NCBI GenBank assembly: GCA_026413885.1
Contig: JAOAKA010000003.1
Span: forward strand, 72,784 to 96,783
Reading direction: 5' to 3'
Length of the DNA: 24,000 bases
Origin: Sulfolobales archaeon
GTDB taxonomy: Archaea > Thermoproteota > Thermoprotei_A > Sulfolobales > NBVN01
This document shows, piece by piece, positions 11,582-21,289 of the stretch. Both the position numbers and the translations under genes were made by a program. How positions within the stretch are numbered: position 1 is the first letter of the stretch; the number at the start of each line of letters is the position of its first letter. The notes below the pieces were generated by a model. It worked only from the letters and a program-made list of their open reading frames with translations, did not search any database and was not told the DNA's origin.

Positions 11582-12394
11582 GTGTGTTGGGGTGTTTTAG
11601 GGAAGCTTTTAATGGTTGACGGTGTTGAAGGTGAAGTTGAAGTTGGGGGGGCTACTGTTAGAGCTCTTGTAGCTATTGATGACGTTAAGCCGGGTGATGT
11701 AGTTTTAGTTCACGCTGGTGTTGTTATAGAGAAGTTAGATAGAGAGAGTGTTCTAGCTAATCTAGCTGTATACTACGACTTAGTTAAATATCACTACGTA
11801 TTTAATGGATTCAGTGAGGGTGAGGCTGGTGAGAGAGCTAGAGAGGAGCTCGCTAAGCTGGCTCGAGATCTAGGGGTTTCCGAGGGGGAAGTCTTGGCGG
11901 CTCTCACCGAGGGCTCTGGAAAGGTAGTTCGAGAGAGTATTGAGCAAGTAGAGATTCCTGAAGAAGCCTTCTACATCGACTACACAATTCAGCTAGCTGA
12001 AACAGACTATCTTCAAGTAACACACTACAGCAACTACCTGAGAGTCTGTGAGAGAGCCTTCATGTCTATGCTGGCTAGCGCAGGCACCAGCTACAGCAGA
12101 CTCATACACGAATACGGAGTCTTCATACCTACAGTAGAAGTTAGCGCTAAGATAAAATCACCCTCAAGACTAGACAACACACTGAGAGCATACGTCTGGA
12201 TAGAGGAAATAGGAAGAAAACACTTAAAATACAGATGCTTAATCTACAATCAAACAACCAAGAAACTAGCAGCAGACATAACCCACATAGCCGTATGCAC
12301 AGACACAGCAATAACAACAAGCCACGAAATACCGAAAGAAATAAAAACAACACTCGAAAAACTAGCAGCTAAAAAATCAAACACAAAACAATAA
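11582..12394 (+). CDS. HypC/HupF-like domain fused to a 4HBT/YbgC-type hotdog thioesterase domain
   Basis: 270 aa with GTG start. Residues 1-~75 (MCWGVLGKLLMVDG...PGDVVLVHAGVVIEKLD) align with HypC (Met-Cys N-terminus, GD.VLVH.G). Residues ~125-255 (YIDYTIQLAETDYLQVTHYSNYLRVCERAF...) match the hotdog thioesterase signature. The ORF is uninterrupted. Confidence 0.8.
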   Translation: MCWGVLGKLLMVDGVEGEVEVGGATVRALVAIDDVKPGDVVLVHAGVVIEKLDRESVLANLAVYYDLVKYHYVFNGFSEGEAGERAREELAKLARDLGVSEGEVLAALTEGSGKVVRESIEQVEIPEEAFYIDYTIQLAETDYLQVTHYSNYLRVCERAFMSMLASAGTSYSRLIHEYGVFIPTVEVSAKIKSPSRLDNTLRAYVWIEEIGRKHLKYRCLIYNQTTKKLAADITHIAVCTDTAITTSHEIPKEIKTTLEKLAAKKSNTKQ

Positions 12395-12395
12395 A

Positions 12396-14735
12396 CCTTC
12401 AATTCTATCATTTAGATTCACTCAAAAAATTGGAGATAGAAGTAAAAAGATTTATAGAACTTTCAATTCTATCGTTTAGATTCCCATGTATGTCTCCGTA
12501 TGTATCTGTATGTAAAACATATATACTTTCAATTCTATCGTTTAGATTCGCTCGTGGTAGCGGCAGGCAGACCGAGGTTGAACCCTATAGCTTTCAATTC
12601 TATCGTTTAGATTCCTGATTAACTACACCATCTAGCTGTAACCTTTCTACGTAAACTTTCAATTCTATCGTTTAGATTCGTGTTTCTAGCTACTAGACCG
12701 TTCCAGCAGTCGAGCCTCAAGCTTTCAATTCTATCGTTTAGATTCCAAGGACTTCTTCTCGTTGATTTGGGGGATGCTGAGCCTTGTTGCTTTCAATTCT
12801 ATCGTTTAGATTCAAGTGGAAAACGTATATAATATAGGGAGTAAGGTAATAACCTTTCAATTCTATCGTTTAGATTCATAACAAAGAGGAGAAAATGAAA
12901 ATATTCAATAACATCGACTTTCAATTCTATCGTTTAGATTCAGAAAGCTCTTCGGCGGTTATTACACGCCGCGTAGTGACTTTCAATTCTATCGTTTAGA
13001 TTCCGAAATTATAATTCTCTACATAGGCAATGGTATACCATCCTTTCAATTCTATCGTTTAGATTCAGATCTTAGAAGAGCTCAGAAAACTACTATCAGA
13101 GAAACTTACTTTCAATTCTATCGTTTAGATTCACGAAGCACTCGAAGCTGGACTACATCATAACGTACACACTTTCAATTCTATCGTTTAGATTCCCGCT
13201 TCGCGAATTAGCTAACTCCGTCACGCGTGTGATTCTTTCAATTCTATCGTTTAGATTCTCTGCAGAAAAGCAAAACCAAGAATGTTGCGTGAAATATTAG
13301 CTTTCAATTCTATCGTTTAGATTCGAAAAAGAGAGAGTTGGGGGGGAACAGGAACCGAACACCTCTTTCAATTCTATCGTTTAGATTCGGGGAGGACGGA
13401 GTGCTTCAGGTTGGGGGAGATTAAGGAGACTTTCAATTCTATCGTTTAGATTCTGGTGGTGGTATAATTGAACCCTCTGGACTCCCTCAGATTCGACTTT
13501 CAATTCTATCGTTTAGATTCGAGCAAGATAAAAACAATGGTGAAGGAGAGATTAAAGGCTAAACTTTCAATTCTATCGTTTAGATTCGGAAATTAATAAT
13601 AAAGTAGAAAGACTGAGGCTCGTGTTCTTTCAATTCTATCGTTTAGATTCCCGCAGCGAACAAAGACATAATGGGTAATGTAATTGTCGTCCTTTCAATT
13701 CTATCGTTTAGATTCATGAACCTGATCAAGAACTTCAGCAGCAAAGTTAAATCGATGCTTTCAATTCTATCGTTTAGATTCTAAGTGTAACACGTTTTTT
13801 ACATATATTTTCACATACGAGCTTTCAATTCTATCGTTTAGATTCAATACATTTATCTTGGTCGTGAACAGTTACAGTTACCCTTCCGATCTTTCAATTC
13901 TATCGTTTAGATTCATAAAGTTAAATGCTCCCTACAAACTGTTACATCTGGTGCTCTTTCAATTCTATCGTTTAGATTCCGTTGACCGCCAACAAGGACG
14001 TAGTCACCTACCTCGCGAGACTTTCAATTCTATCGTTTAGATTCAAACATGTTGAGAGAATTGTTGAAGTCAGTTGAGGGCGAGCTGCTTTCAATTCTAT
14101 CGTTTAGATTCTGGGTGGGGGCACGCCGTACTCCTCGGACTTCCTCGCGTCTTTCAATTCTATCGTTTAGATTCGGAGGCGTAGGCGGTGTTGGTAGGGG
14201 TACTGTGATATCCGGCCTTTCAATTCTATCGTTTAGATTCCACAATTCTTCTTTTTTCCGCCCCGTTGGAACTTGATGACTGCTTTCAATTCTATCGTTT
14301 AGATTCGCTAAGGCGGGGGTGATGGTGTAGTGCTAGCAGCGTACGGCTTTCAATTCTATCGTTTAGATTCACTCATAACCTCTCTCAATAAACTTGCTGT
14401 TAACGTATCTGACTTTCAATTCTATCGTTTAGATTCACTAGGACACAGAGCTCCCTATCTCTAAATAGAGACGGTGGTGCTTTCAATTCTATCGTTTAGA
14501 TTCAGGTCTACTTTTATCGAGGTGATAGGTGGTGGCTGAGATAAGCTTTCAATTCTATCATTTAGATTCACGCGTTCAGGGCTGCGTACGGCTACGTCCC
14601 CCTAGACCTCTTTCAATTCTATCGTTTAGATTCCGCAGTTGTAGACGGTAACCTCCCCGGTCGTCCACACCTCGATCTTTCAATTCTATCGTTTAGATTC
14701 TGTGTTTTGTTTTTCTTTCTCTATCGTTTAGATTC
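12396..14735 (-). CRISPR. CRISPR array: 36 full 24-nt repeats plus one truncated leader-proximal copy, 35 spacers of 38-45 nt
   Basis: The repeat reads CTTTCAATTCTATCGTTTAGATTC on the plus strand. Repeat starts: 12396, 12460, 12526, 12591, 12656, 12722, 12790, 12854, 12918, 12980, 13043, 13109, 13172, 13235, 13301, 13365, 13430, 13497, 13564, 13627, 13692, 13758, 13822, 13891, 13956, 14021, 14088, 14151, 14217, 14283, 14347, 14413, 14480, 14546, 14610, 14677. The reverse complement GAATCTAAACGATAGAATTGAAAG ends in ATTGAAAG, the 8-nt crRNA 5' handle known from crenarchaeal Cas6 processing, so transcription is on the minus strand from the leader at 14736 onward. The far-end repeat (12396) is degenerate with 2 mismatches. 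The repeat at 14546 has G->A at position 15. Confidence 0.98.
14715..14735 (-). repeat. Truncated CRISPR repeat (3-nt internal deletion) abutting the leader
   Basis: CTTTC---TCTATCGTTTAGATTC: the consensus lacking AAT (ATT on the transcribed strand), which destroys the ATTGAAAG handle. It is separated from the last intact repeat by only 14 nt (14701-14714). Confidence 0.85.
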
Positions 14736-14758
14736 TTCTGTGTTTCTAGTGTTTCTGG

Positions 14759-14767
14759 GTTTATAAG
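14759..14767 (-). promoter_or_regulatory. Candidate TATA box for pre-crRNA transcription
   Basis: CTTATAAAC on the minus strand, centred about 27 nt upstream of the truncated repeat boundary at 14735. Confidence 0.4.
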
Positions 14768-14852
14768 TTTTTATGTAAGCTATTTCCCGGTTTTTAAGAC
14801 TTGTTTTTAAATTAGTTTACTTAACTTCTCTCGGTAGCTCTCTACATAGAAA

Positions 14853-14871
14853 TCCCAAGACAGACATGGGA
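14853..14871. promoter_or_regulatory. Dyad motif copy A: TCCCA-N9-TGGGA (exact)
   Basis: TCCCAAGACAGACATGGGA. Part of the 23-nt bipartite motif TTCCCAT-N6-CTTGGGATTT read on the minus strand (14850-14872). Confidence 0.6.
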
Positions 14872-14951
14872 AAAACCCCCAGCAGCACAGACCACCATCA
14901 GACAGGAACTCGAAGCCAAGAACAGTAAGACTTATTAACTAGAGAACACAC

Positions 14952-14970
14952 TCCCATGTAGACCGTGGGA
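14952..14970. promoter_or_regulatory. Dyad motif copy D (central): TCCCA-N9-TGGGA (exact)
   Basis: TCCCATGTAGACCGTGGGA. It lies at the point where base composition switches and roughly midway between the inverted outer copies. Confidence 0.6.
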
Positions 14971-15006
14971 AAAACTAGGGAGGCTTCTAATGGTGTTTTA
15001 GAGGGG

Positions 15007-15016
15007 GTTTATATGT
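15007..15016 (+). promoter_or_regulatory. TATA-like 10-mer GTTTATATGT (also present upstream of csa3)
   Basis: Identical 10-mer at 17886-17895. If functional, the TSS would fall near 15040, just before dyads E, B and C. Confidence 0.3.
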
Positions 15017-15043
15017 TTTTCGGTTTTGTGCTCTCATGTGTGT

Positions 15044-15062
15044 TCCCATGGTGTTCATGGGG
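15044..15062. promoter_or_regulatory. Dyad motif copy E: TCCCA-N9-TGGGG (one mismatch)
   Basis: TCCCATGGTGTTCATGGGG. It is immediately adjacent to copy B, with centres 22 bp apart. Confidence 0.5.
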
Positions 15063-15065
15063 TGT

Positions 15066-15084
15066 TCCCATTTCTTACTTGGGA
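15066..15084. promoter_or_regulatory. Dyad motif copy B: TCCCA-N9-TGGGA (exact)
   Basis: TCCCATTTCTTACTTGGGA. Part of the bipartite TTCCCAT-N6-CTTGGGATTT on the plus strand (15065-15087). Confidence 0.6.
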
Positions 15085-15122
15085 TTTTCTCGAGTTTTTT
15101 TGTGTGTGTTCTGTTTTATTTT

Positions 15123-15141
15123 TCCTATTGCTTTCTTGGGA
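15123..15141. promoter_or_regulatory. Dyad motif copy C: TCCTA-N9-TGGGA (one mismatch)
   Basis: TCCTATTGCTTTCTTGGGA. Part of the bipartite TTCCTAT-N6-CTTGGGATTT on the plus strand (15122-15144), 57 bp from copy B. Confidence 0.5.
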
Positions 15142-15173
15142 TTTGCTTCTGCTTTCTTTACTGAATAGTTATC

Positions 15174-16082
15174 TTGTTTTTAGTCTCGGTAGTGTTCGGT
15201 GTCTTCGTGGTTGTGAGGACTGAGGTTTTGCTTAAGTGGTTGAGGGTTTTGAGGTCTCTTGCTGAGGGCTACCCGGTTGAGTCTGAGTTGAGGGGTTGGT
15301 CCTGGCAGTTCCCACCGGTTAGGCCGAGGTCCTATCTGGGGCTAGCGGTTCAGGACGCGGCTTCCTACTGTCCGACGAAGCGCGATGTCTGGTTGAGGAG
15401 AGTTGCCGGTGTTAGAGTTCAGCCTACACCCTCTATGAAGCTGGGTTCAGTTGTTCACGATGTAGTATTCTCAGTTGTATCTGTAGTTAGGAAGTACGTT
15501 AGTGTGGGTTTAGACTTCGAGAAGCTCTCTAGAGCTATCGGTAGAGCTATTGAGTTAAAGAGTCGTGAGTGTCCTTCAGATGAGTGTGTTAAGATAGCTA
15601 GGAGCATCGGGTGGCTGACGTACTACACAGCTACCTCAGAGTGGCTTTGGTCGAGTAGTGGGGTGATACCGACACCGGCAACAGCAGCTCTCAGTGAGGT
15701 GAGAGTTGATGGGTCACCGATAGGGTTGAGCAGCAGCTTGAGAATAGACTCACTACCGATTCCAAACGTAGTTGTCGATATAAAGACAGGTAGGAAAACC
15801 GAGGTACACGAACTATCGCTAGCAGCATACGCACTAGCTCTCGAATCAACACTAGAAACACCGGTAGACTTCGGGATACTGGTCTACGTATGGTGGAATA
15901 GCAGCCTACAGGTAGATATAAGAGGGGTTTACATAGGTCCAGACTTAAGAAGGGTTTTTCTAGACTCGAGAGATGAGGCTATAGACATCGTGCTATCGAG
16001 AAGAGAACCACCGAAAGCAGCTGAGTGCCCTCAGACATGTCCATACCTAGAGGTATGTGAACATGAAAATACTCGTAGTTAG
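15174..16082 (+). CDS. csa1: Csa1 (Cas4-like RecB-family nuclease of type I-A adaptation modules)
   Basis: ORF-track coordinates. One N-terminal Cys (SYCPTKRD), DIKTG(RK) nuclease motif, C-terminal Cys cluster CPQTCPYLEVC. Position is first in a csa1-cas1-cas2-cas4 operon. The true start is probably GTG 15207 or 15213, because the first 11 codons are T-rich and hydrophobic and lie under a TATA-like box. Confidence 0.85.
   Translation: MFLVSVVFGVFVVVRTEVLLKWLRVLRSLAEGYPVESELRGWSWQFPPVRPRSYLGLAVQDAASYCPTKRDVWLRRVAGVRVQPTPSMKLGSVVHDVVFSVVSVVRKYVSVGLDFEKLSRAIGRAIELKSRECPSDECVKIARSIGWLTYYTATSEWLWSSSGVIPTPATAALSEVRVDGSPIGLSSSLRIDSLPIPNVVVDIKTGRKTEVHELSLAAYALALESTLETPVDFGILVYVWWNSSLQVDIRGVYIGPDLRRVFLDSRDEAIDIVLSRREPPKAAECPQTCPYLEVCEHENTRS
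15176..15182 (+). promoter_or_regulatory. Candidate TATA box (GTTTTTA) for a leaderless csa1 transcript
   Basis: Centred about 28 nt upstream of the in-frame GTG codons at 15207 and 15213. The same heptamer occurs three times in the leader. Confidence 0.3.
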
Positions 16083-17049
16083 CGGATACGGAGTGAAGAT
16101 ATCGGTTAAGAAAGACTCTATAGTGTTGAAAACTAGGGAGGGAACTAGTAATATATCTCTAAGTGAAGTAGACTGTGTTACAGTAACTACCTCGGGAGTC
16201 TCCATAACGTCTAAAGCTATAAGGTACTTCACGAAGCTGGGGGTAATGCTAGTACTTCTAGACTCGAGAGGAATGCCCGCAGCAGTACTCCACCACCCAT
16301 TCACAACTAGAACAGTAAGCACTAGAAGAGCTCAGTATGAAGCTCTCCACAGCGGTAGAGCTGAGGAAGTTGTTAAAGCAGTAGCAGTTTCTAAGCTGGG
16401 AAATCAAGCAGGACTTCTGAGAAAACTGAGGAGAGAACTGAGAGTTAGTGAGCTAGCTGAAGTAGAGCAAAAAATACTGGAGCTAGCTAGTAGTGTAGCT
16501 AAAATCAAAAATAAGACATTGAGTGAGCTAAGAACTGAGGTGATAAATACTGAAGCCACATCTGCGAGACACTACTGGTCAGCTCTAGCTTCAGTACTAC
16601 CGAAGGACCTGGGGTTCGACGGCAGAGATCAGGAGGGCTGTGACGTAGTTAACTGCGCTCTCAACTACGGCTACGGAATTCTGTACTCAGCTATTTGGAG
16701 GTACCTATCGATACACGGTCTAGACCCTTACGCAGGATTTCTCCACGCAGATAGGTCTGGGAAACCTGTTCTAACATTCGATGTAGTAGAGGTATTTAGA
16801 GTACCAGCGGTAGACTTCCCGGTCGTTAGAGCTTTAAGACAGGGTGTGAAACTCGAAGTAAGAAACTGCCTTCTAGACCGCGAGTCTAGAGCTAGAGTAG
16901 TCTCGCTAGCAGCTAGAGCTATGAGAGAAAAATACTCTGCGTATGGAGAGGTGAGAGAGCTAGAGAGCTGGGTAAGTAATTTCACGTCATCACTAGCTTC
17001 CTACCTTAGAGGTGAGGTCCAGCTGAAGCCTCTAGTATTTAGGTGGTAG
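16057..17049 (+). CDS. cas1: Cas1 integrase
   Basis: 330 aa. Typical N-terminus (MKILVVSGYGVKISVKKDSIVLK), ALNYGYGILYS, and DPYAGFLHADRSGKPVLTFDVVEVFR with the conserved His/Asp. ATG 16063 is the more likely start. Confidence 0.95.
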   Translation: MNMKILVVSGYGVKISVKKDSIVLKTREGTSNISLSEVDCVTVTTSGVSITSKAIRYFTKLGVMLVLLDSRGMPAAVLHHPFTTRTVSTRRAQYEALHSGRAEEVVKAVAVSKLGNQAGLLRKLRRELRVSELAEVEQKILELASSVAKIKNKTLSELRTEVINTEATSARHYWSALASVLPKDLGFDGRDQEGCDVVNCALNYGYGILYSAIWRYLSIHGLDPYAGFLHADRSGKPVLTFDVVEVFRVPAVDFPVVRALRQGVKLEVRNCLLDRESRARVVSLAARAMREKYSAYGEVRELESWVSNFTSSLASYLRGEVQLKPLVFRW

Positions 17050-17342
17050 CTGTGAGAGTCCTCGTAGTGTACGATATATCAGATAACTTCATTAGAGAGG
17101 AATTCGCTAGAAAGCTGAAGCAGTTAGGGCTGGAGAGAATTCAGAGATCGTGTTTTCTAGGTAGAGGTGGTGTAGAGCTAGTGAAAACAGTGATTAGAGC
17201 TGCTGAGAGAACTGTGGAGGTAGGGAGAGACGTAGTTCACGTATTCCTCCTCGACGAGTACAGCTTTAAAAATATGAAGCACGTAGGCAGGCCCTTCAAC
17301 TGGAGGAGAGTCGAGGGAGTTGATTACGTTGGTGACTACTGA
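17043..17342 (+). CDS. cas2: Cas2
   Basis: 99 aa. The VLVVYDISDN... ferredoxin-fold N-terminus is typical of Cas2. It overlaps the cas1 stop. GTG 17052 is an alternative start. Confidence 0.9.
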   Translation: MVAVRVLVVYDISDNFIREEFARKLKQLGLERIQRSCFLGRGGVELVKTVIRAAERTVEVGRDVVHVFLLDEYSFKNMKHVGRPFNWRRVEGVDYVGDY

Positions 17343-17880
17343 ACGTAGATATGTAACATCCTGGGATGTAAAGGAGTACGTTTACTGTCCAGTGATAGTC
17401 TGGATTAAACACGTATTAAACGTAGAGGAACCACCGGACTTCAACATGATCTTCGGGAGTTCTAAAGTATACCGCCAAGATATTCTGGAGAGAGTGGGTC
17501 TACCGAAGCCCTGGTCTTTCGAGGTCTCCCTCAGAAACTCGTCTAGAGGTATTGCGGGAGTTGTAGATGTTATTGGAGGCTGTAGTAGATATGAGGTAGT
17601 AGAGCTTAAAGCATTTCGGAGGTGGAGCTACAGTCACTTCAGAATTCAGCTAATGTTTTACGCATACTTAGTATCTACTACAGTAGGACCAGTTACTAGA
17701 GCCCACCTAGTTCTCGAAGACAGAGTGAGAACTTACTCAGTGAATAACCACGCTATAAGAGATGTCGAGTGGGTTATTGAGAGAGTTAGAGAGATCAGAG
17801 ATTCTGAGAAACCTCCGCAGGTGCTTCAGAGTAGAAAGTGTCGCTTGTGTTGGTATAGAAGGTACTGCCCTAGTGTTTGA
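17320..17880 (+). CDS. cas4: Cas4 (RecB-like exonuclease with Fe-S cysteines)
   Basis: 186 aa. N-terminal Cys (YVYCPV), D...E.K nuclease core (VVDVIGG...YEVVELKAF), QLMFYAYL, and C-terminal C-x2-C-x5-C (CRLCWYRRYC). The start is uncertain (TTG 17320 or GTG 17332). Confidence 0.9.
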   Translation: MITLVTTERRYVTSWDVKEYVYCPVIVWIKHVLNVEEPPDFNMIFGSSKVYRQDILERVGLPKPWSFEVSLRNSSRGIAGVVDVIGGCSRYEVVELKAFRRWSYSHFRIQLMFYAYLVSTTVGPVTRAHLVLEDRVRTYSVNNHAIRDVEWVIERVREIRDSEKPPQVLQSRKCRLCWYRRYCPSV

Positions 17881-17885
17881 GGTGT

Positions 17886-17895
17886 GTTTATATGT
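17886..17895 (+). promoter_or_regulatory. TATA-like box (GTTTATATGT) for csa3
   Basis: Centred about 33 nt upstream of the csa3 ATG at 17923, in the 42-nt gap after cas4. This implies csa3-cas6 can be transcribed independently with a very short 5' UTR. Confidence 0.45.
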
Positions 17896-17922
17896 ATTGC
17901 TTAGAGAGTTCTGTGGAGACTT

Positions 17923-18561
17923 ATGGGGAGAGTATTCATAATGCCGCTAGGTTTTCACGAAGATAGAGCTATGAGGATGTTCATAGAGAACTCAGTTACT
18001 GAGAGAGACAGAGTCTACATAATAACTGCGAATAAGACTCTGTCGGTTGTGAGAGCCTATGAGTCACTAGTTGCTTTTTGCAGAAAAATAAGACTCCCAG
18101 ATCCAGAGCTCGTTGAAGTACCTATGGATTTATCCGGCGGTATTAGCAGGATTCTGCAGATCTTGAGGGAGACTGATGGAGAGGTCGTTGTAGATTTATC
18201 GAGAGGTATGAGGTACCTCATAGTGTACACTCTAATCGCACTGCTTCTATCTAATCGAACAGCAACGATACACATACAGCCGGAGAGTGGTGAAGCTACT
18301 GAGATAGTGATTCCAAAGCAGCTTCTTGAAGTTGCTAGAAACCCTCCGAGAGGTTTATACATTGAAATACTGAGAGTAGTTAGCGAGAGTGAGGGAGCTT
18401 CAGTAGAGGAGATATCGAGAGCACTAGGTAAGTCTGCTAAGACAGTCACTAACTGTCTTACAAAACTCGGTAAGCTCAAGCTGGTCTCGAGGAGGGGAAG
18501 AGAGAGAGGCATCTACTTAACCGATCTCGGTAAGTTGGTGCTAACACTTACCGGTGGTTAA
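17923..18561 (+). CDS. csa3: Csa3-type CRISPR-associated transcriptional regulator (CARF domain + winged HTH)
   Basis: 212 aa. The N-terminal Rossmann-like start VFIMPLGFHEDRAMR is typical of Csa3 CARF domains. The C-terminal wHTH is EILRVVSESEGASVEEISRALGKSAKTVTNCLTKLGKLKLVSRR. Confidence 0.85.
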   Translation: MGRVFIMPLGFHEDRAMRMFIENSVTERDRVYIITANKTLSVVRAYESLVAFCRKIRLPDPELVEVPMDLSGGISRILQILRETDGEVVVDLSRGMRYLIVYTLIALLLSNRTATIHIQPESGEATEIVIPKQLLEVARNPPRGLYIEILRVVSESEGASVEEISRALGKSAKTVTNCLTKLGKLKLVSRRGRERGIYLTDLGKLVLTLTGG

Positions 18562-19471
18562 AATGATGGTGCAGGTAGTTAAGATAGGTGTTACACCTAC
18601 TGCGGACTGTGTAGCTCCACCGGCTACTTCTAAAATAATGAAGTACTGCTTTGGAGAAGCTATACCTAGAAAGATCTCCAGTAGCATCGTCAATGTATCT
18701 ATCTCAATGCTCTTTGAAGGACGTAGAGCACTGTACTCTACAGAAGGAAAAAAGAGTCCGGTAGTGCTGAAAGCCGGTAAGACATATTCCGGTAGAGTGA
18801 CTATCGTAGATTCTTCAACAGAGTTCATAGAGAGAGTCAATAAGCTGGGACTAGACTCGTTTGTGTGTGATTCTGTCTACGGAGTATTTCACATATCGAT
18901 CTCGGAAATCGAGGTGACACCACTAGAGAAAGTCGACATGGAACTCCCCAAAGTGTTTAAAGTAGTATTCAACACCCCGACAATACTGAACTCCAAGCTT
19001 ATGTCACCCCCACCACTAGCTGATAAAGTAGCAGCAACACATAAGCTAATTCCTCAGCCATCCTTTATCTTCTCACACCTCCTCAGATTCTGGAATACCT
19101 ACGCACCACCAGAGCATAAGCTGGGAAAACCTAGTGAGTGGGCGCCCTACTTACTCGGAAGAATGGCTGACATATCTCTAGTAGAGCTAGACTACAGAGT
19201 TAGAGCTGTGACTGCGATAGTAGGTAAAGACGACAGAGGGAGGCTCAGAAAGTCTAGAGGCTTCGTAGGCTGGGTAATATACGAATCGAAAGCCAATAAA
19301 AAACTCCACAGCATAGTATCTAAACTACTAGCACTAGCATCGCTCGTAGGCGTGGGAAGGTCTAGAGGAATAGGGTTTGGACACGTCTCTATAGAGATTC
19401 CGAGTAAACCTGTTGAAGAGCGAGAGTCCCCATCTGAAAACAGAGCAGATGCAGTGGCTAGAAAGCTGTGA
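18554..19471 (+). CDS. cas6: Cas6 crRNA-processing endoribonuclease
   Basis: 305 aa in the ORF track; ATG 18563 or 18566 is the more likely start, just after the csa3 stop. It has the C-terminal glycine-rich Cas6 loop GVGRSRGIGFGHVSIE and sits in a cas context. Confidence 0.85.
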   Translation: MVKMMVQVVKIGVTPTADCVAPPATSKIMKYCFGEAIPRKISSSIVNVSISMLFEGRRALYSTEGKKSPVVLKAGKTYSGRVTIVDSSTEFIERVNKLGLDSFVCDSVYGVFHISISEIEVTPLEKVDMELPKVFKVVFNTPTILNSKLMSPPPLADKVAATHKLIPQPSFIFSHLLRFWNTYAPPEHKLGKPSEWAPYLLGRMADISLVELDYRVRAVTAIVGKDDRGRLRKSRGFVGWVIYESKANKKLHSIVSKLLALASLVGVGRSRGIGFGHVSIEIPSKPVEERESPSENRADAVARKL

Positions 19472-19500
19472 GTAGTTAGCTAAGTGTGTGGTAAAGATAG

Positions 19501-19585
19501 CGCCGGGGGCGGGATTCGAACCCGCGTGGGCTGTTGGCCCACCGGCTCTCCAGGCCGGCCCCTTAGACCGCTCGGGCACCCCGGC
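19501..19585 (-). tRNA. tRNA-Ser (anticodon GGA), class II with long variable arm, no intron, CCA not encoded
   Basis: Hand-folded from GCCGGGGTGCCCGAGCGGTCTAAGGGGCCGGCCTGGAGAGCCGGTGGGCCAACAGCCCACGCGGGTTCGAATCCCGCCCCCGGCG. The 7-bp acceptor stem is GCCGGGG/CCCCGGC. The anticodon stem is CCGGC/GCCGG with loop CTGGAGA. The variable arm is GGGC-CAACA-GCCC. The T arm is GCGGG-TTCGAAT-CCCGC. Confidence 0.93.
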
Positions 19586-19608
19586 TCCTTGTTGCTCTGG
19601 TTTTGTGG

Positions 19609-19617
19609 TATAAAAAT
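19609..19617 (-). promoter_or_regulatory. TATA box for tRNA-Ser
   Basis: ATTTTTATA on the minus strand, preceded by AAAG (BRE-like), centred about 28 nt upstream of the tRNA 5' end. Confidence 0.45.
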
Positions 19618-19632
19618 CTTTAGTGTATAGCT

Positions 19633-19941
19633 TTATTTTAATACCTCTATCTCTATGTATACGTCGTCCGGCACTCTTATCCTCATTATCTGCCTCATGA
19701 ATTTCTCGTCTGCTTCTACATCTATGAGTCTTTTATGGACCCTCATCTCCCATTTTTCATATACTTTAGTTCCCTCTCCGTGCGGCGGCACTAGGACTGG
19801 TACAACCATTTTCTTAGTCGGTAGTGGTACGGGGCCCGAGATCTTTATTCCGAGTTTTTTAGCGTGATCTACTATCTGCTCAGCTACCTGATTTAGGTGA
19901 GATACGTTTACACTCCACAATCTTATTCTTACTTTAGCCAT
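19633..19941 (-). CDS. rps10: 30S ribosomal protein S10 (uS10)
   Basis: 102 aa. [10 protein letters not shown]...[11 protein letters not shown]...HKRLIDV is a clear S10 sequence. It is immediately downstream of EF-1alpha. Confidence 0.95.
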
Positions 19942-19969
19942 CGGTAGCTACCCAATGAAATAGGGGTCT

Positions 19970-21289
19970 CTAAGCTTTCAACTCTACTTTAGCTGCTACT
20001 AGGTCGACGATCGTGCCTATACCGACAGTCTTACCCATATCTCTCATAGCGAATCTTCCGAGCTGTGGAAACTCACTGTATTTCTCAATAACCATCGGCT
20101 TAATTGGTTTGAATCTAACTAGAGCTGACTCACCAGCCTTAATGAACTGTGGATTCTTCTCAACTATCTGACCTGTCTTCGGGTCTAATCTACCGACTAT
20201 CTCAACGATCTTAGCGGCGATAGATGCTGTATGTGCGTGAATTACCGGTGTGTAGCCTACGTGTATAGCGGATGGGTGCCACATAACGAAGATTCTAGCA
20301 GTAAACTCTTCAACAACAGTTGGTGGTTTCTCCGGGTGGCCGACTACGTCACCTCTCTTAACCTGCTCTTTTGAGACACCTCTAACGTTTAGTCCTACGT
20401 TATCTCCCGGCAGAGCTTCATCAAGTCTCTCGTAGTGCATCTCGATAGATCTAACGTCACCAACGACACCGGGCGGCATGAAGACTACTTTATCACCAAT
20501 TCTAAGTCTACCTGTCTCCACCCTACCAACAGGTACCGTACCGACACCTGAGATACTGTATACCTCCTGAATCGGTAGTCTGAGAGGTTTATCGACTGGT
20601 TTAGGTGGTTCTTTAGACATATCTAGAGCTTGAACTATTGTTGGGCCTTTATACCAAGGCATTCGAGTTGATTGATTCATAACATTGTCTCCAAACCAGC
20701 CGGAGACCGGCACAAAGGGTATTTCATCAACTCTGTAGCCGAGAGTTCTCAGGAACTTCTTTAAGACATCTACTACCTGCTTATACCTGGCTTCACTCCA
20801 GGACGGGTCTGTTATATCCATCTTAGTTATAGCTACAACTAAGTTCTCAATACCCATAGTTCTAGCGAGAATTGCGTGCTCACGAGTTTGACCCTCAGGA
20901 CTCATACCTGCTTCAAACTCACCTGTTTTAGCTGAGACTACTAGTAGAGCAGCATCTGCTTGACTAGTCCCCGTGATCATGTTTTTAACGAAGTCTCTGT
21001 GTCCGGGGGCGTCAATGATTGTCCAGTAGTACTTAGGTGTCTCGAACTTCATGAATGAAAGAGCTATGGTCAACCCTCTCTCTCTTTCCTCCTTTAGTCT
21101 ATCTAGGAACCAAGCAAACTTCTCAGACTCCTTACCAGCCTTCTTAGCAGCTTCCTCAACTTCTTTAGCTGTCTTCGGGTCGATCGCTCCCAGTAGTAAG
21201 AGCATGTGTCCTACTAGAGTACTCTTGCCATGGTCTACGTGCCCGATTACCACCAGATTCATGTGGGGTTTAGTCGGTCTTCTACTCAT
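19970..21289 (-). CDS. tuf: Translation elongation factor EF-1alpha (aEF1A)
   Basis: 439 aa. G-domain motifs GHVDHGKST, DAPGHRDF and an NKMD-equivalent (ITKMD). It carries the eocyte-type insertion GEFEAGMSPEGQTREH. Confidence 0.98.
   Translation of the reverse strand: MSRRPTKPHMNLVVIGHVDHGKSTLVGHMLLLLGAIDPKTAKEVEEAAKKAGKESEKFAWFLDRLKEERERGLTIALSFMKFETPKYYWTIIDAPGHRDFVKNMITGTSQADAALLVVSAKTGEFEAGMSPEGQTREHAILARTMGIENLVVAITKMDITDPSWSEARYKQVVDVLKKFLRTLGYRVDEIPFVPVSGWFGDNVMNQSTRMPWYKGPTIVQALDMSKEPPKPVDKPLRLPIQEVYSISGVGTVPVGRVETGRLRIGDKVVFMPPGVVGDVRSIEMHYERLDEALPGDNVGLNVRGVSKEQVKRGDVVGHPEKPPTVVEEFTARIFVMWHPSAIHVGYTPVIHAHTASIAAKIVEIVGRLDPKTGQIVEKNPQFIKAGESALVRFKPIKPMVIEKYSEFPQLGRFAMRDMGKTVGIGTIVDLVAAKVELKA

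Follow-up and report, generated by a model that had tools for sequence, protein, structure and literature searches.

What protein reads a cluster of palindromes lying between a CRISPR array and the first of its adaptation genes, and what does it do there? The question is raised by a locus in a Sulfolobales archaeon, analysed here in a window of 24,000 nucleotides to which all coordinates refer. To our knowledge, the switching on of CRISPR adaptation and of CRISPR arrays is understood in very few organisms and, among archaea, essentially only in Sulfolobus islandicus. The array and genes concerned are the following.

12396-14700, minus strand: CRISPR array of 36 repeats (GAATCTAAACGATAGAATTGAAAG on the minus strand), transcribed leftward
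14715-14735, minus strand: degenerate repeat (GAATCTAAACGATAGA-GAAAG, with a 3-nt deletion) at the leader-repeat junction
15207-16082, plus strand: csa1, Cas4-family type I-A adaptation gene (Pfam PF06023, TIGR01896)
16057-17880, plus strand: adaptation genes cas1, cas2 and cas4, contiguous or overlapping with csa1
17887-17894: TATA-like box of csa3 itself, TTTATATG
17923-18561, plus strand: csa3, CARF plus winged-helix regulator (PF22662, TIGR01884, structure matches), the candidate binder
18554-19471, plus strand: cas6, crRNA processing, overlapping the end of csa3

A mutated repeat at 12396 marks the trailer end of the array. The repeats terminate on the minus strand in ATTGAAAG, which we take to be the 8-nt crRNA 5' handle of crenarchaeal type I-A/III systems. 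A 14-nt mini-spacer (14701-14714) follows the degenerate repeat, an arrangement that the six syntenic loci considered below all share in this position. A preliminary description of this DNA had given the order as 36 repeats followed by csa1, cas1, cas2, cas4, csa3 and cas6. That order stood, but the csa1 start was moved from 15174 to the GTG at 15207, where the gene call places it (PF06023 scored E 2.7e-69 on the 302-aa ORF 15174-16082, and TIGR01896 scored 247.7 bits on 15207-16082).

A pattern scan for TCCCA-N9-TGGGA with at most one mismatch returned five matches in the 24-kb window, all inside 14853-15141, between the leader of the array and csa1-cas1-cas2-cas4-csa3-cas6. The expectation from shuffled sequence was 0.35, and none of 100 shuffles reached five. 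The sites are numbered from the array toward csa1.

14853-14871: site 1, TCCCAAGACAGACATGGGA, exact dyad in the CRISPR leader, 118-136 bp from the degenerate first repeat
14952-14970: site 2, TCCCATGTAGACCGTGGGA, exact dyad, the second in the leader
15044-15062: site 3, TCCCATGGTGTTCATGGGG, one mismatch, 28 bp from the TATA-like box at 15008-15015
15066-15084: site 4, TCCCATTTCTTACTTGGGA, exact dyad
15123-15141: site 5, TCCTATTGCTTTCTTGGGA, one mismatch, proximal to the csa1 promoter

Site 2 lies 217 bp from the degenerate first repeat, its centre 99 bp from that of site 1. Sites 3 and 4 are separated by 3 bp (22 bp centre to centre), and site 5 occupies -84 to -66 relative to the csa1 start codon. 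The rescan thus returned the five dyads of the preliminary description with the same coordinates and mismatch counts, and the 23-nt extension proposed there, TTCC(C/T)AT-N6-CTTGGGATTT, is correct at 14850-14872 (minus strand), 15065-15087 and 15122-15144; the extended consensus of the sites reads TCCCA.G-N5-C.TGGGA. Tolerating two mismatches added only two matches elsewhere in the window, against 6.06 expected (chance level), and the 43.6 kb examined of the 1.4-Mb source contig contained a single further one-mismatch dyad, within a coding region. In the intergenic region between array and csa1, neither dyad arms at other spacings (N6-N12) nor a copy of TCCC-N10-GGGA were found, all five sites being TCCC-N11-GGGA elements of 19 bp. 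Two ORFs in this region (14965-15168 and 15026-15223) were rejected as genes, their frames and lengths varying among relatives. Frame and length likewise vary for a 38-codon T-rich frame starting from an ATG inside site 3, and the ATG is ACG in one relative (L006).

The window was compared with five syntenic relatives (L003, L004, L006, L007 and L008; Csa1 61-80% identical). Sites 1, 2, 3 and 5 occupy the same positions in all five, site 3 being kept there as TCCYATGGT-N5-TTRGG. Site 4 is a full dyad in the window and L006 only; it is partial in L008 and reduced to its right arm in L003, L004 and L007. Inter-site lengths over the six loci are 80-84, 73-75, 38-40 and exactly 65 bp. Mean pairwise identity is 0.80 in the arm columns, against 0.49 in the spacers and 0.50 in the rest of the intergenic region, and the arms are more conserved than other intergenic columns at p = 4.5e-10 (Mann-Whitney, six syntenic loci). 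At the leader sites, arms and spacers stand at 0.91 versus 0.40 (site 1) and 0.85 versus 0.36 (site 2). In L008 an arm change is symmetric, TCCCA/TGGGA becoming TCCTA/TAGGA.

The five sites had also been described as parts of a larger mirror-image structure. Its composition counts are exact (70% A+C in 14861-14960, 75% G+T in 15001-15100), and the long imperfect inverted repeat is real as a 29-nt ungapped core at 83%, flanking 180 bp; the 52/44-nt version, however, needs nine gap positions. The structure did not survive comparison: the segment between sites 1 and 2 has an A+C fraction of 0.74 here versus 0.27-0.54 in the relatives, and site 4, which contributes one half of that inverted repeat, has been lost from three of the five. 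The mirror-image composition is peculiar to the window genome and is not conserved. A simple inversion of the A+C-rich segment with respect to its G+T-rich counterparts was considered and discarded, since the short words common to them occur in unchanged order.

The wider distribution of the motif was surveyed at 84 csa1 loci, setting 74 kb of leader, csa1-upstream and csa3-upstream DNA against 638 kb of other DNA. Exact TCCC-Nk-GGGA occurs in the former at 0.60/kb for k=10, 0.27/kb for k=11 and 0.13/kb for k=9, and in the latter at 0.013-0.024/kb for k=9-11, an enrichment of 10-25 times in CRISPR-leader and csa1/csa3-promoter DNA. All other spacings fall at 0.00-0.03/kb in both classes. The expectation that the motif would be confined to leaders and cas promoters was upheld at these 84 loci, with background levels elsewhere. 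One spacing dominates per lineage, N9 in 6 loci, N10 in 20 and N11 in 8; N10 and N11 sites are mixed in L014, L024, L034 and L082. Upstream of csa1 the dyads have a hot spot 84 bp from the start, exactly at -84 in the five closest loci and within 6 bp of it (-78 to -90) in 22 of the 31 proximal dyads listed, which come from several archaeal orders. In AT-richer loci a TATA-like box lies about 20-30 bp downstream of the proximal dyad, and leader dyads in L014 and L022 lie about 120 and 240 bp from the arrays.

An exact dyad precedes csa1 in 22 of 40 loci containing csa3 versus 4 of 32 without a detectable csa3 (Fisher p = 2e-4), a comparison of phylogenetically non-independent loci that is also confounded by phylogeny, many of the csa3-negative loci belonging to Archaeoglobi, Bathyarchaeia and Nitrososphaeria. 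All four dyad-bearing loci without detectable csa3 are on contigs under 5 kb, and no dyad was found upstream of csa1 in Thermoprotei loci devoid of csa3 (L039, L042, L065 and L074). Scanning metagenome contigs for the 23-nt TTCCCAT-N6-CTTGGGATTT yielded at least 120 stretches. Nearly all of the matches listed are isolated chance matches from unrelated habitats, so that the scan serves as a null for clustering only. A second dyad within 400 bp was present in 4 of the 120 stretches listed, and among the matches listed csa3 accompanied only L191, an archaeal locus in which array, leader, dyad, csa3 and a further dyad follow one another.

The preliminary description could match the motif to no described site; this was mistaken. 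Arms and layout are those of CAPPa, one base of spacing apart (PMC8699464). CAPPa, the CRISPR-associated promoter palindrome of Sulfolobales, was reported by Charbonneau et al. (2021) as TCCC-N10-GGGA, present twice per leader and once upstream of cas4a/csa1, and correlating with csa3a (PMC8699464). The window sites have outer arms, TCCC...GGGA, identical to those of the published oligonucleotides, with T/A flanks (three sites exact, two with one arm mismatch). Also common to both are two leader copies (sites 1 and 2; Table S5 of PMC8699464), a further copy ahead of cas4a (= csa1), the first adaptation gene (close to BRE/TATA in CAPPa, to a putative TATA-like box here), a csa3a-type gene at the same locus, and the lack of copies at unrelated promoters, here over the 43.6 kb of source contig and 638 kb of related DNA. 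CAPPa spans 18 bp (oligonucleotides TTCCCGAATTTACTAGGGAT and the idealised ATCCCGAATTAATTCGGGAT), whereas the sites here span 19 bp (N11) and have an extra conserved A/T inside each arm; there are three csa1-side sites instead of one; csa3 is placed downstream of csa1 in one gene string, not divergently; and the host falls outside the Sulfolobaceae genomes surveyed in PMC8699464. A text match to "CAPPa" in PMC10883916 turned out to be the word Cappable-seq, not the motif.

The csa3 product scores E 6e-28 with PF22662 and 94.2 bits with TIGR01884 (cutoff 60.2), and matches the S. solfataricus Csa3 structures 2WTE, 6W11 and 6WXQ over its full length (residues 5-209, E 5e-22). An N-terminal CARF domain with both ligand-pocket motifs (motif 1, PLGFHEDRAMR, has the T and N positions substituted; motif 2 is LSRGMR) is joined to a C-terminal winged helix. 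The recognition-helix pattern K-T-x-x-N is kept across the clade, from S. solfataricus Csa3a to the window protein, and parallels the invariant TCCC arms. A second, Csa3b-like paralogue lies beside csa5/cas7 in L003, and there is none in the window. No type III (cOA-producing) system was seen within the 43.6 kb examined.

In S. islandicus, Csa3a leaves a footprint on the csa1 promoter and also binds the leader, and it activates the two (Liu et al. 2015, PMC4333418; 2017, PMC5587795). Its site in strain REY15A is an imperfect palindrome immediately upstream of the csa1 promoter, with a footprint from -81 to -42 that can be set beside the -84 to -66 of site 5. Two leader motifs lie about 100-130 bp from the first repeat, a distance comparable to that of site 1 here. 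Binding in REY15A is cooperative over multiple sites and activates both adaptation genes and array. The S. islandicus consensus, TTCNTAACTAAANANGGNNNGAAA, is however written differently and is far less symmetric than the window dyads, and binding and activation, experimental findings there, are predictions from sequence here.

We consider it very probable that a homodimer of the Csa3a-type regulator encoded at the locus binds the five dyads, which in this uncultured, Desulfurococcales-like archaeon would correspond to the CAPPa and Csa3a sites of Sulfolobus and Saccharolobus. The array would then be a Csa3-type operator, a spacing variant of a known element. The preliminary description had postulated an operator array for a dimeric winged-helix protein, most likely Csa3. 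As far as sequence goes the operator reading holds, backed by arms that are kept while spacers drift, positions held in six lineages, confinement of the motif to leaders and cas promoters at 84 loci, co-occurrence with csa3 and retention of the recognition helix, but the identity of the binder is still a prediction. One Csa3 wing-helix would contact each TCCCA half-site. Site 5, whose distance to the start codon is conserved across orders, would most likely activate csa1-cas1-cas2-cas4 from upstream, like the site that S. islandicus Csa3a footprints. With a gap of 3 bp and centres 22 bp apart, sites 3 and 4 should lie on roughly the same face of the DNA; they are probably occupied cooperatively and may serve a second, array-directed TATA module. 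Sites 1 and 2 would probably increase transcription of the pre-crRNA and may pass Cas1 on to the junction of leader and repeat. Cyclic tetra-adenylate could act as a modulator, given the retained ligand-pocket motifs of the CARF domain.

The sign and direction of such regulation depend on the promoters, for which the intergenic region offers several candidates.

14757-14773, minus strand: BRE/TATA-like module (AAAAACTTATAAACCC on the minus strand) with the conserved block 14762-14773
14803-14815: conserved TTTTTAA(A/G), a putative TATA-like box 37 bp from site 1
14833-14849: conserved block GGTAGCTCTCTACATAG, adjoining site 1
14925-14938: conserved BRE/TATA-like block G-AAA-GCTTATT, 13 bp from site 2, readable on either strand
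14974-14985: conserved block ACTAGGGAGGCT, adjoining site 2
15005-15027: TATA-like module, second copy, GGGTTTATATGTTTTTCGGTTTT, 37 bp from site 2 and 28 bp from site 3
15164-15173, plus strand: TATA-like box ATAGTTATCT (ACGTATATCC in relatives), about -43 to -34 from the csa1 start

The module at 14757-14773 is likely the pre-crRNA promoter, with a predicted orientation and a predicted start near 14736. The conserved box at 15164-15173, situated 22-23 bp downstream of site 5, is the probable csa1 promoter, and divergent control of these two putative promoters is plausible. The block at 15005-15027 is the longest conserved one of the intergenic region in the six-locus alignment. The TATA-like boxes themselves span 14761-14768, 14808-14815, 14931-14938, 15008-15015 and 15165-15172. 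Several of the conserved TATA-like boxes near sites 1-4 can be read both ways, which makes promoter orientations ambiguous; scored for BRE similarity as an orientation test, csa3's own promoter came out equal in both directions. Some sites could overlap or follow start sites and act negatively.

Such arrangements bear on a model in which Csa3 is mainly a repressor or roadblock that would silence the adaptation genes and the leader until lifted by a signal. If read on the plus strand, the 14925-14938 block predicts a start inside site 2, and the box at 15008-15015 a start at site 3 that would leave sites 3-5 in a 5' UTR. The family can also repress: S. islandicus Csa3b does so from cas-promoter sites (PMC7480081; PMC8844856). 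The Csa3b sites (CAPPb), in type I-A interference and csa1 promoters, are likewise palindromes served by a CARF-wHTH paralogue. The CAPPb motif is nevertheless unrelated in sequence (PMC8699464), Csa3b acts together with Cascade, and the window protein aligns with Csa3a-type structures and resembles Csa3a, the activator. Site 5, moreover, has the geometry of the footprinted S. islandicus activator site, immediately upstream of BRE/TATA, and an equal dyad-to-TATA distance recurs in the family. A mainly repressive role is a possibility, but on the unlikely side.

Sites 1 and 2 might instead, or in addition, act in spacer integration, docking a Csa3-Cas1 complex or bending the leader for Cas1-Cas2. 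In S. islandicus, efficient adaptation depends on the leader-distal Csa3a motif, Cas1 and Csa3a interact at the leader, and the leader-proximal end is where Cas1 binds (Liu et al. 2022, PMC9456107); the leader sites here are 118 and 217 bp from the conserved degenerate repeat. However, the same dyad is found upstream of csa1 or csa3 at loci with no adjacent array (L009, L010 and L012), and the constant distance that it keeps to the start codon speaks for a role in the promoter. We rate an integration function as rather unlikely; it would in any case complement operator binding by Csa3 without replacing it.

It is more doubtful that the dyads are operators for a different DNA-binding protein, or for Csa3 with a partner, and that csa3 is merely co-inherited with them. 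This alternative draws on S. solfataricus, whose Csa3a showed comparable in vitro affinities for CAPPa and for control DNA (PMC8699464), little or no sequence specificity being found in two laboratories, and whose DNA binding was left unchanged by cA4 (PMC8699464, PMC8844856). Even for the model organism, then, it is not fully settled what binds this class of motif. Additional proteins have been suggested for the initial specific contact (PMC8699464), a partner has also been invoked elsewhere (PMC8844856), and the association of dyad and csa3 is correlative and phylogenetically confounded. On the other hand, S. islandicus Csa3a gave specific EMSA shifts, competition and footprints, and mutation of the motif abolished binding (PMC4333418, PMC5587795). 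The motif tracks csa3 even inside Thermoprotei, the K-T-x-x-N helix is conserved alongside the TCCC arms, and no other regulator gene is consistently present in the compared loci. The dyads do resemble operators of MarR/ArsR winged-helix proteins in general (16-20 bp, conserved outer half-sites, a free centre, multiple copies in divergent intergenic regions). They differ from these in that the DNA-binding domain of the window regulator is fused to a CARF sensor domain and that half-site spacing depends on lineage (N9, N10 or N11), an uncommon trait for one orthologous regulator.

A function of the dyads at the RNA level, as hairpins that would signal processing or stability, for instance, in the leader transcript or in the 5' UTR of csa1, is highly improbable. 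The arms can pair, symmetric arm changes would keep the pairing, site 2 folds at -9.7 kcal/mol on the plus strand (z = -2.7), and sites 3 and 4 jointly reach -15.6 kcal/mol (z = -2.3). Three of the five hairpins are nonetheless no better than shuffles (z -0.7 to -1.0; single folds range from -3.9 to -9.7 kcal/mol), and a stem of 5-7 bp is weak, the more so at the high growth temperature suggested by lineage taxonomy. Arm sequence is invariant beyond pairing from Sulfolobaceae to the window lineage, the sites are found in either orientation as well as upstream of promoters, and an Rfam search of the region gave no match at E <= 1. A dispersed MITE/REP-like repeat or a chance low-complexity feature, which the 29-nt inverted repeat around 180 bp and the many exact metagenome matches might bring to mind, can be dismissed: the region is syntenic and length-conserved in six lineages, the motif is not scattered in 43.6 kb of the source contig or the 638 kb of related DNA, and the metagenome matches listed are isolated chance singletons save the lone archaeal one, L191.

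Returning to Csa3 as the predicted binder, identical TCCC/GGGA arms and an unchanged recognition helix go with N9, N10 or N11 spacers, depending on the lineage. It is conceivable, though we offer it as a speculation with the odds strongly against it, that half-site spacing is a functional, tunable parameter of the Csa3 regulon: CARF ligand binding moves the wing-helices relative to each other, so that apo and cA4-bound Csa3 may prefer different spacings. If so, an operator would be occupied before or after type III signalling according to its spacing, the apparent non-specificity of S. solfataricus Csa3a in vitro could be explained, and the five-site N11 array would be a natural test bed.

By itself the five-site locus reveals no new mechanism. 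What it adds to CAPPa, in a heat-loving archaeon that is uncultured, is a spacing longer by one base and two extra sites. Even in Sulfolobus islandicus there is dispute over how specifically Csa3a binds DNA and how it responds to ligand, and a locus combining five strongly conserved sites and conserved inter-site distances with a compact regulator gene is a good substrate for questions of binding specificity, cooperativity and response to cyclic oligoadenylate. For the family, the finding means that the Csa3-associated palindrome is not confined to Sulfolobaceae but is widely conserved in type I-A adaptation modules across Thermoprotei, where its position at -84 of csa1 is conserved and its half-site spacing is lineage-specific.

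A search of the window for TCCCA-N9-TGGGA, allowing up to one mismatch, returned exactly five sites, the number and positions given in the preliminary description. That count had been put far beyond chance, and shuffled sequence indeed averaged 0.35 matches and never reached five. With up to two mismatches just two extra matches appeared outside the five sites (6.06 expected); since this relaxation adds only matches at chance level, the five form a sharply separated class. No dyads with other spacings were found in the intergenic region that holds them. A scan of 43.6 kb of the source contig (GCA_033581075.1, contig JAVQTV010000001.1) gave one more one-mismatch match, within a ferredoxin-type gene, as many as chance predicts. 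The extension of some copies to 23 nt, TTCC(C/T)AT-N6-CTTGGGATTT, reads as described (direct and inverted repeats D7, I1 and I3 of the window). Of the long inverted repeat also proposed, an ungapped 29-nt core stands at 83%, whereas the longer version requires 9 gap positions.

The dyads lie between a CRISPR array and genes identified with Pfam and NCBIfam as csa1, cas1, cas2, cas4, csa3 (17923-18561) and cas6, the gene call placing the true csa1 start at GTG 15207. The array repeat on the minus strand is GAATCTAAACGATAGAATTGAAAG; its ATTGAAAG end, which we take to be the crRNA 5' handle, is therefore on that strand, and the sole doubly mutated repeat is the one at the far end (12396). On these two grounds the array is read leftward and the leader is assigned to 14701-15206. 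The features of the region are as follows.

12396-14700, CRISPR array of 36 repeats, left of the dyads
14757-14773, 14803-14815, 14925-14938 and 15005-15027, TATA-like modules of the leader, conserved in relatives
14761-14768, predicted TATA-like box for the pre-crRNA, its start predicted to fall close to the degenerate repeat (14735)
14853-14871, dyad site 1
14952-14970, dyad site 2
15044-15062, dyad site 3
15066-15084, dyad site 4
15123-15141, dyad site 5
15164-15173, predicted csa1 TATA-like box, 22-23 bp downstream of the site 5 dyad
17887-17894, TATA-like box of csa3, TTTATATG, 29-36 bp upstream of its ATG

Csa3 aligns over its full length with the crystal structures of S. solfataricus Csa3a (2WTE, 6W11 and 6WXQ; E 5e-22) and both motifs of its CARF pocket, PLGFHEDRAMR and LSRGMR, are kept. 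Between cas4 and csa3, a 42-bp gap (17881-17922) holds GTTTATATGT, the same sequence as the core of the module at 15007-15016; csa3 therefore probably has its own promoter, one without a dyad and probably giving a near-leaderless mRNA. At the other end of the locus, an ORF (11582-12394) in which a HupF/HypC-like domain (residues 1-63) is fused to a 4HBT thioesterase domain (138-255) stops one base short of the trailer-end repeat. Where the leader meets the first full repeat, in the region 14701-14735, the minus strand carries a degenerate repeat that has lost 3 nt, GAATCTAAACGATAGA-GAAAG, and after it a mini-spacer of 14 nt, AAAAACAAAACACA. This arrangement is kept in all six syntenic lineages (see below) and partly co-varies with the repeat sequence of each; it may belong to the leader-repeat junction recognised in integration, or may be the first pre-crRNA bases transcribed.

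The gene order array, leader, csa1, cas1, cas2, cas4, csa3, cas6 is common to five other genomes or contigs, whose Csa1 proteins are 80% (L006), 66% (L003, L004 and L007) and 61% (L008) identical to that of the window. When the leader-csa1 interval (about 510 bp) was aligned across the six loci, sites 1, 2, 3 and 5 held the same positions in all six; site 4 was complete in the window and L006 only. Mean pairwise identity was 0.80 in arm columns, against 0.49 in spacer columns and 0.50 in the remaining interval (p = 4.5e-10). Changes in the arms tend to be symmetric, as in TCCTA-N9-TAGGA of L008, and inter-site distances are near-constant (80-84, 73-75, 38-40 and exactly 65 bp), also across stretches whose sequence has diverged. 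Conserved arms with drifting spacers are the classic signature of a site for a dimeric protein.

The compositional mirror drawn in the preliminary description fared differently. Its counts are exact (70% A+C on one side, 75% G+T on the other), but the relatives do not share the feature: A+C makes up 74% of the segment between sites 1 and 2 in the window and 27-54% of it in the relatives. In L003 and L007 the counterpart of this segment (14872-14951) has 27-29% A+C, although it is of conserved length (80-84 bp) and lies between conserved blocks; short words are reverse-complemented (AAGCCAAGAA in the window, TTCTTGGCTT in L003/L007) with their order unchanged, which rules out a simple inversion. 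Two copies of the module GGGTTTATA(A/T)GTTTTT, offset by 248 bp, form a direct repeat (14757-14772 and 15005-15020; D9), and between the copies lie a related G-AAA-GCTTATT block (14925-14938) and a TTTTTAA box (14803-14815). The distance from TATA to dyad is exactly 37 bp in two cases (14815 to 14853 and 14970 to 15008). Conserved blocks GGTAGCTCTCTACATAG (14833-14849) and ACTAGGGAGGCT (14974-14985) abut sites 1 and 2. An ATG follows the latter block by 6-7 nt in 5/6 lineages, with a stop 1-3 codons further on in the window and L003; the arrangement looks like a Shine-Dalgarno sequence plus mini-ORF, with no peptide conserved across the six lineages.

The preliminary description could not match the motif to a described site. 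It has, however, the arms and layout of CAPPa, a "CRISPR-associated promoter palindrome" that Charbonneau et al. (2021, PMC8699464) describe as conserved in 27 Sulfolobales. CAPPa sits directly upstream of the cas4a (= csa1) BRE/TATA, occurs in two copies per Csa3a-dependent leader and correlates in its presence with csa3a. The window likewise has two sites in the leader and others at the csa1 promoter. The CAPPa oligonucleotides TTCCCGAATTTACTAGGGAT and ATCCCGAATTAATTCGGGAT (idealised) are TCCC-N10-GGGA, 18 bp; the Figure 1 legend of the same paper gives TCCCN8GGGA, in disagreement with the stated 18 bp and with both oligonucleotides (Table S3: N10), so that motif matching from the legend alone would set the spacing wrongly. 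In the window, in contrast, every one of the five sites is 19 bp long (N11) and has one more conserved A/T on the inside of each arm; the csa1 side has three sites where CAPPa has one; and csa3 stands downstream in the gene string with its own TATA-like box instead of being divergent from csa1. At the csa1 promoter of S. islandicus, the Csa3a footprint spans -81 to -42 (Liu et al., PMC4333418).

Exact TCCC-Nk-GGGA (k = 5 to 17) was counted in 80 csa1 loci from species-representative genomes, fetched via Csa1 alignment. DNA counted as CRISPR context if it lay no further than 700 bp upstream of csa1, 200 bp upstream of csa3 or 450 bp from an array. Densities in CRISPR-context DNA (74 kb) and in other DNA (638 kb) were 0.60 and 0.024/kb for k=10, 0.27 and 0.017/kb for k=11, 0.13 and 0.013/kb for k=9, and 0.00-0.03 and 0.006-0.024/kb for all other k. 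Within the reach of these data, the refuting condition named in the preliminary description, a dispersed repeat, is thus not borne out. The position of the dyads shows a striking hot spot: in 22 of 31 listed rows, from Desulfurococcales, Acidilobales and other Thermoprotei, the dyad nearest the promoter begins no more than 6 bp from -84 relative to the csa1 start, and in AT-richer loci a TATA-like sequence follows about 20-30 bp downstream. Site 5 is the window's instance of this conserved dyad. Many dyads beyond the csa1-upstream window sit about 120 and 240 bp from the array edge and are therefore leader sites.

An exact dyad was present in 22/40 loci with csa3 against 4/32 without detectable csa3 (Fisher p = 2e-4), the four all being on contigs of less than 5 kb; no dyad was present in Thermoprotei loci that lack csa3 and lie on long contigs (L039, L042, L065 and L074). 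The recognition-helix pattern K-T-x-x-N is kept from S. solfataricus Csa3a to the window's Csa3 and is missing in divergent paralogues. A second, divergent Csa3 paralogue adjoins csa5/cas7 in L003 (2372-3043), a Csa3b-like position, and immediately downstream of cas6 this locus carries a full set of Cmr (type III-B) genes with Csx1 (11825-20756); no type III genes were seen in the 43.6 kb around the window. N10 was the dominant spacing at 20 loci, N11 at 8 and N9 at 6, and N10 and N11 sites occur together beside a single csa3 gene in four (L014, L024, L034 and L082). Symmetrised consensuses were tTCCCA.g-N5-c.TGGGAa for N11 and tTCCC.g-N6-c.GGGAa for N10 sites. Half-site spacing in this TCCC/GGGA operator family is thus lineage-specific and occasionally mixed within one locus, of which the literature searched made no mention.

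The dyads, then, form a conserved, CRISPR-specific, csa3-linked array of fixed geometry, and it is quite probable that Csa3 dimers bind them. We lean, by a narrow balance, towards a division of labour in which site 5 would be the upstream activator site for the predicted csa1 promoter. Sites 3 and 4 are separated by 3 bp, and their centres by 22 bp (about two helical turns); binding to them may be cooperative, and they may in addition act on the conserved TATA module at 15008-15015. Sites 1 and 2 may stimulate the predicted pre-crRNA promoter and perhaps help deliver Cas1. The dyads may instead be repressive or act as a roadblock, because in some readings of TATA-like module orientation sites 2-4 overlap or come after start sites. 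A partner protein may also be needed, or another protein may bind, since S. solfataricus Csa3a shows weak or no sequence specificity in vitro and no cA4 effect (PMC8699464, PMC8844856). RNA hairpins were rejected: they fold weakly, in most cases no better than shuffled sequence, the arm sequence itself and not just pairing is conserved, and the dyad region has no Rfam match. A MITE or REP was rejected given synteny in six lineages and a motif not dispersed in the 43.6 kb of source contig and the 638 kb of other DNA scanned, and a coding role for lack of a conserved ORF in the leader-csa1 interval. Judged from sequence, the dyads are a real regulatory element of known kind that lacks the published 18-bp length of CAPPa. 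Rather than a new mechanism, the locus offers a useful model for Csa3 specificity and for the ligand question.
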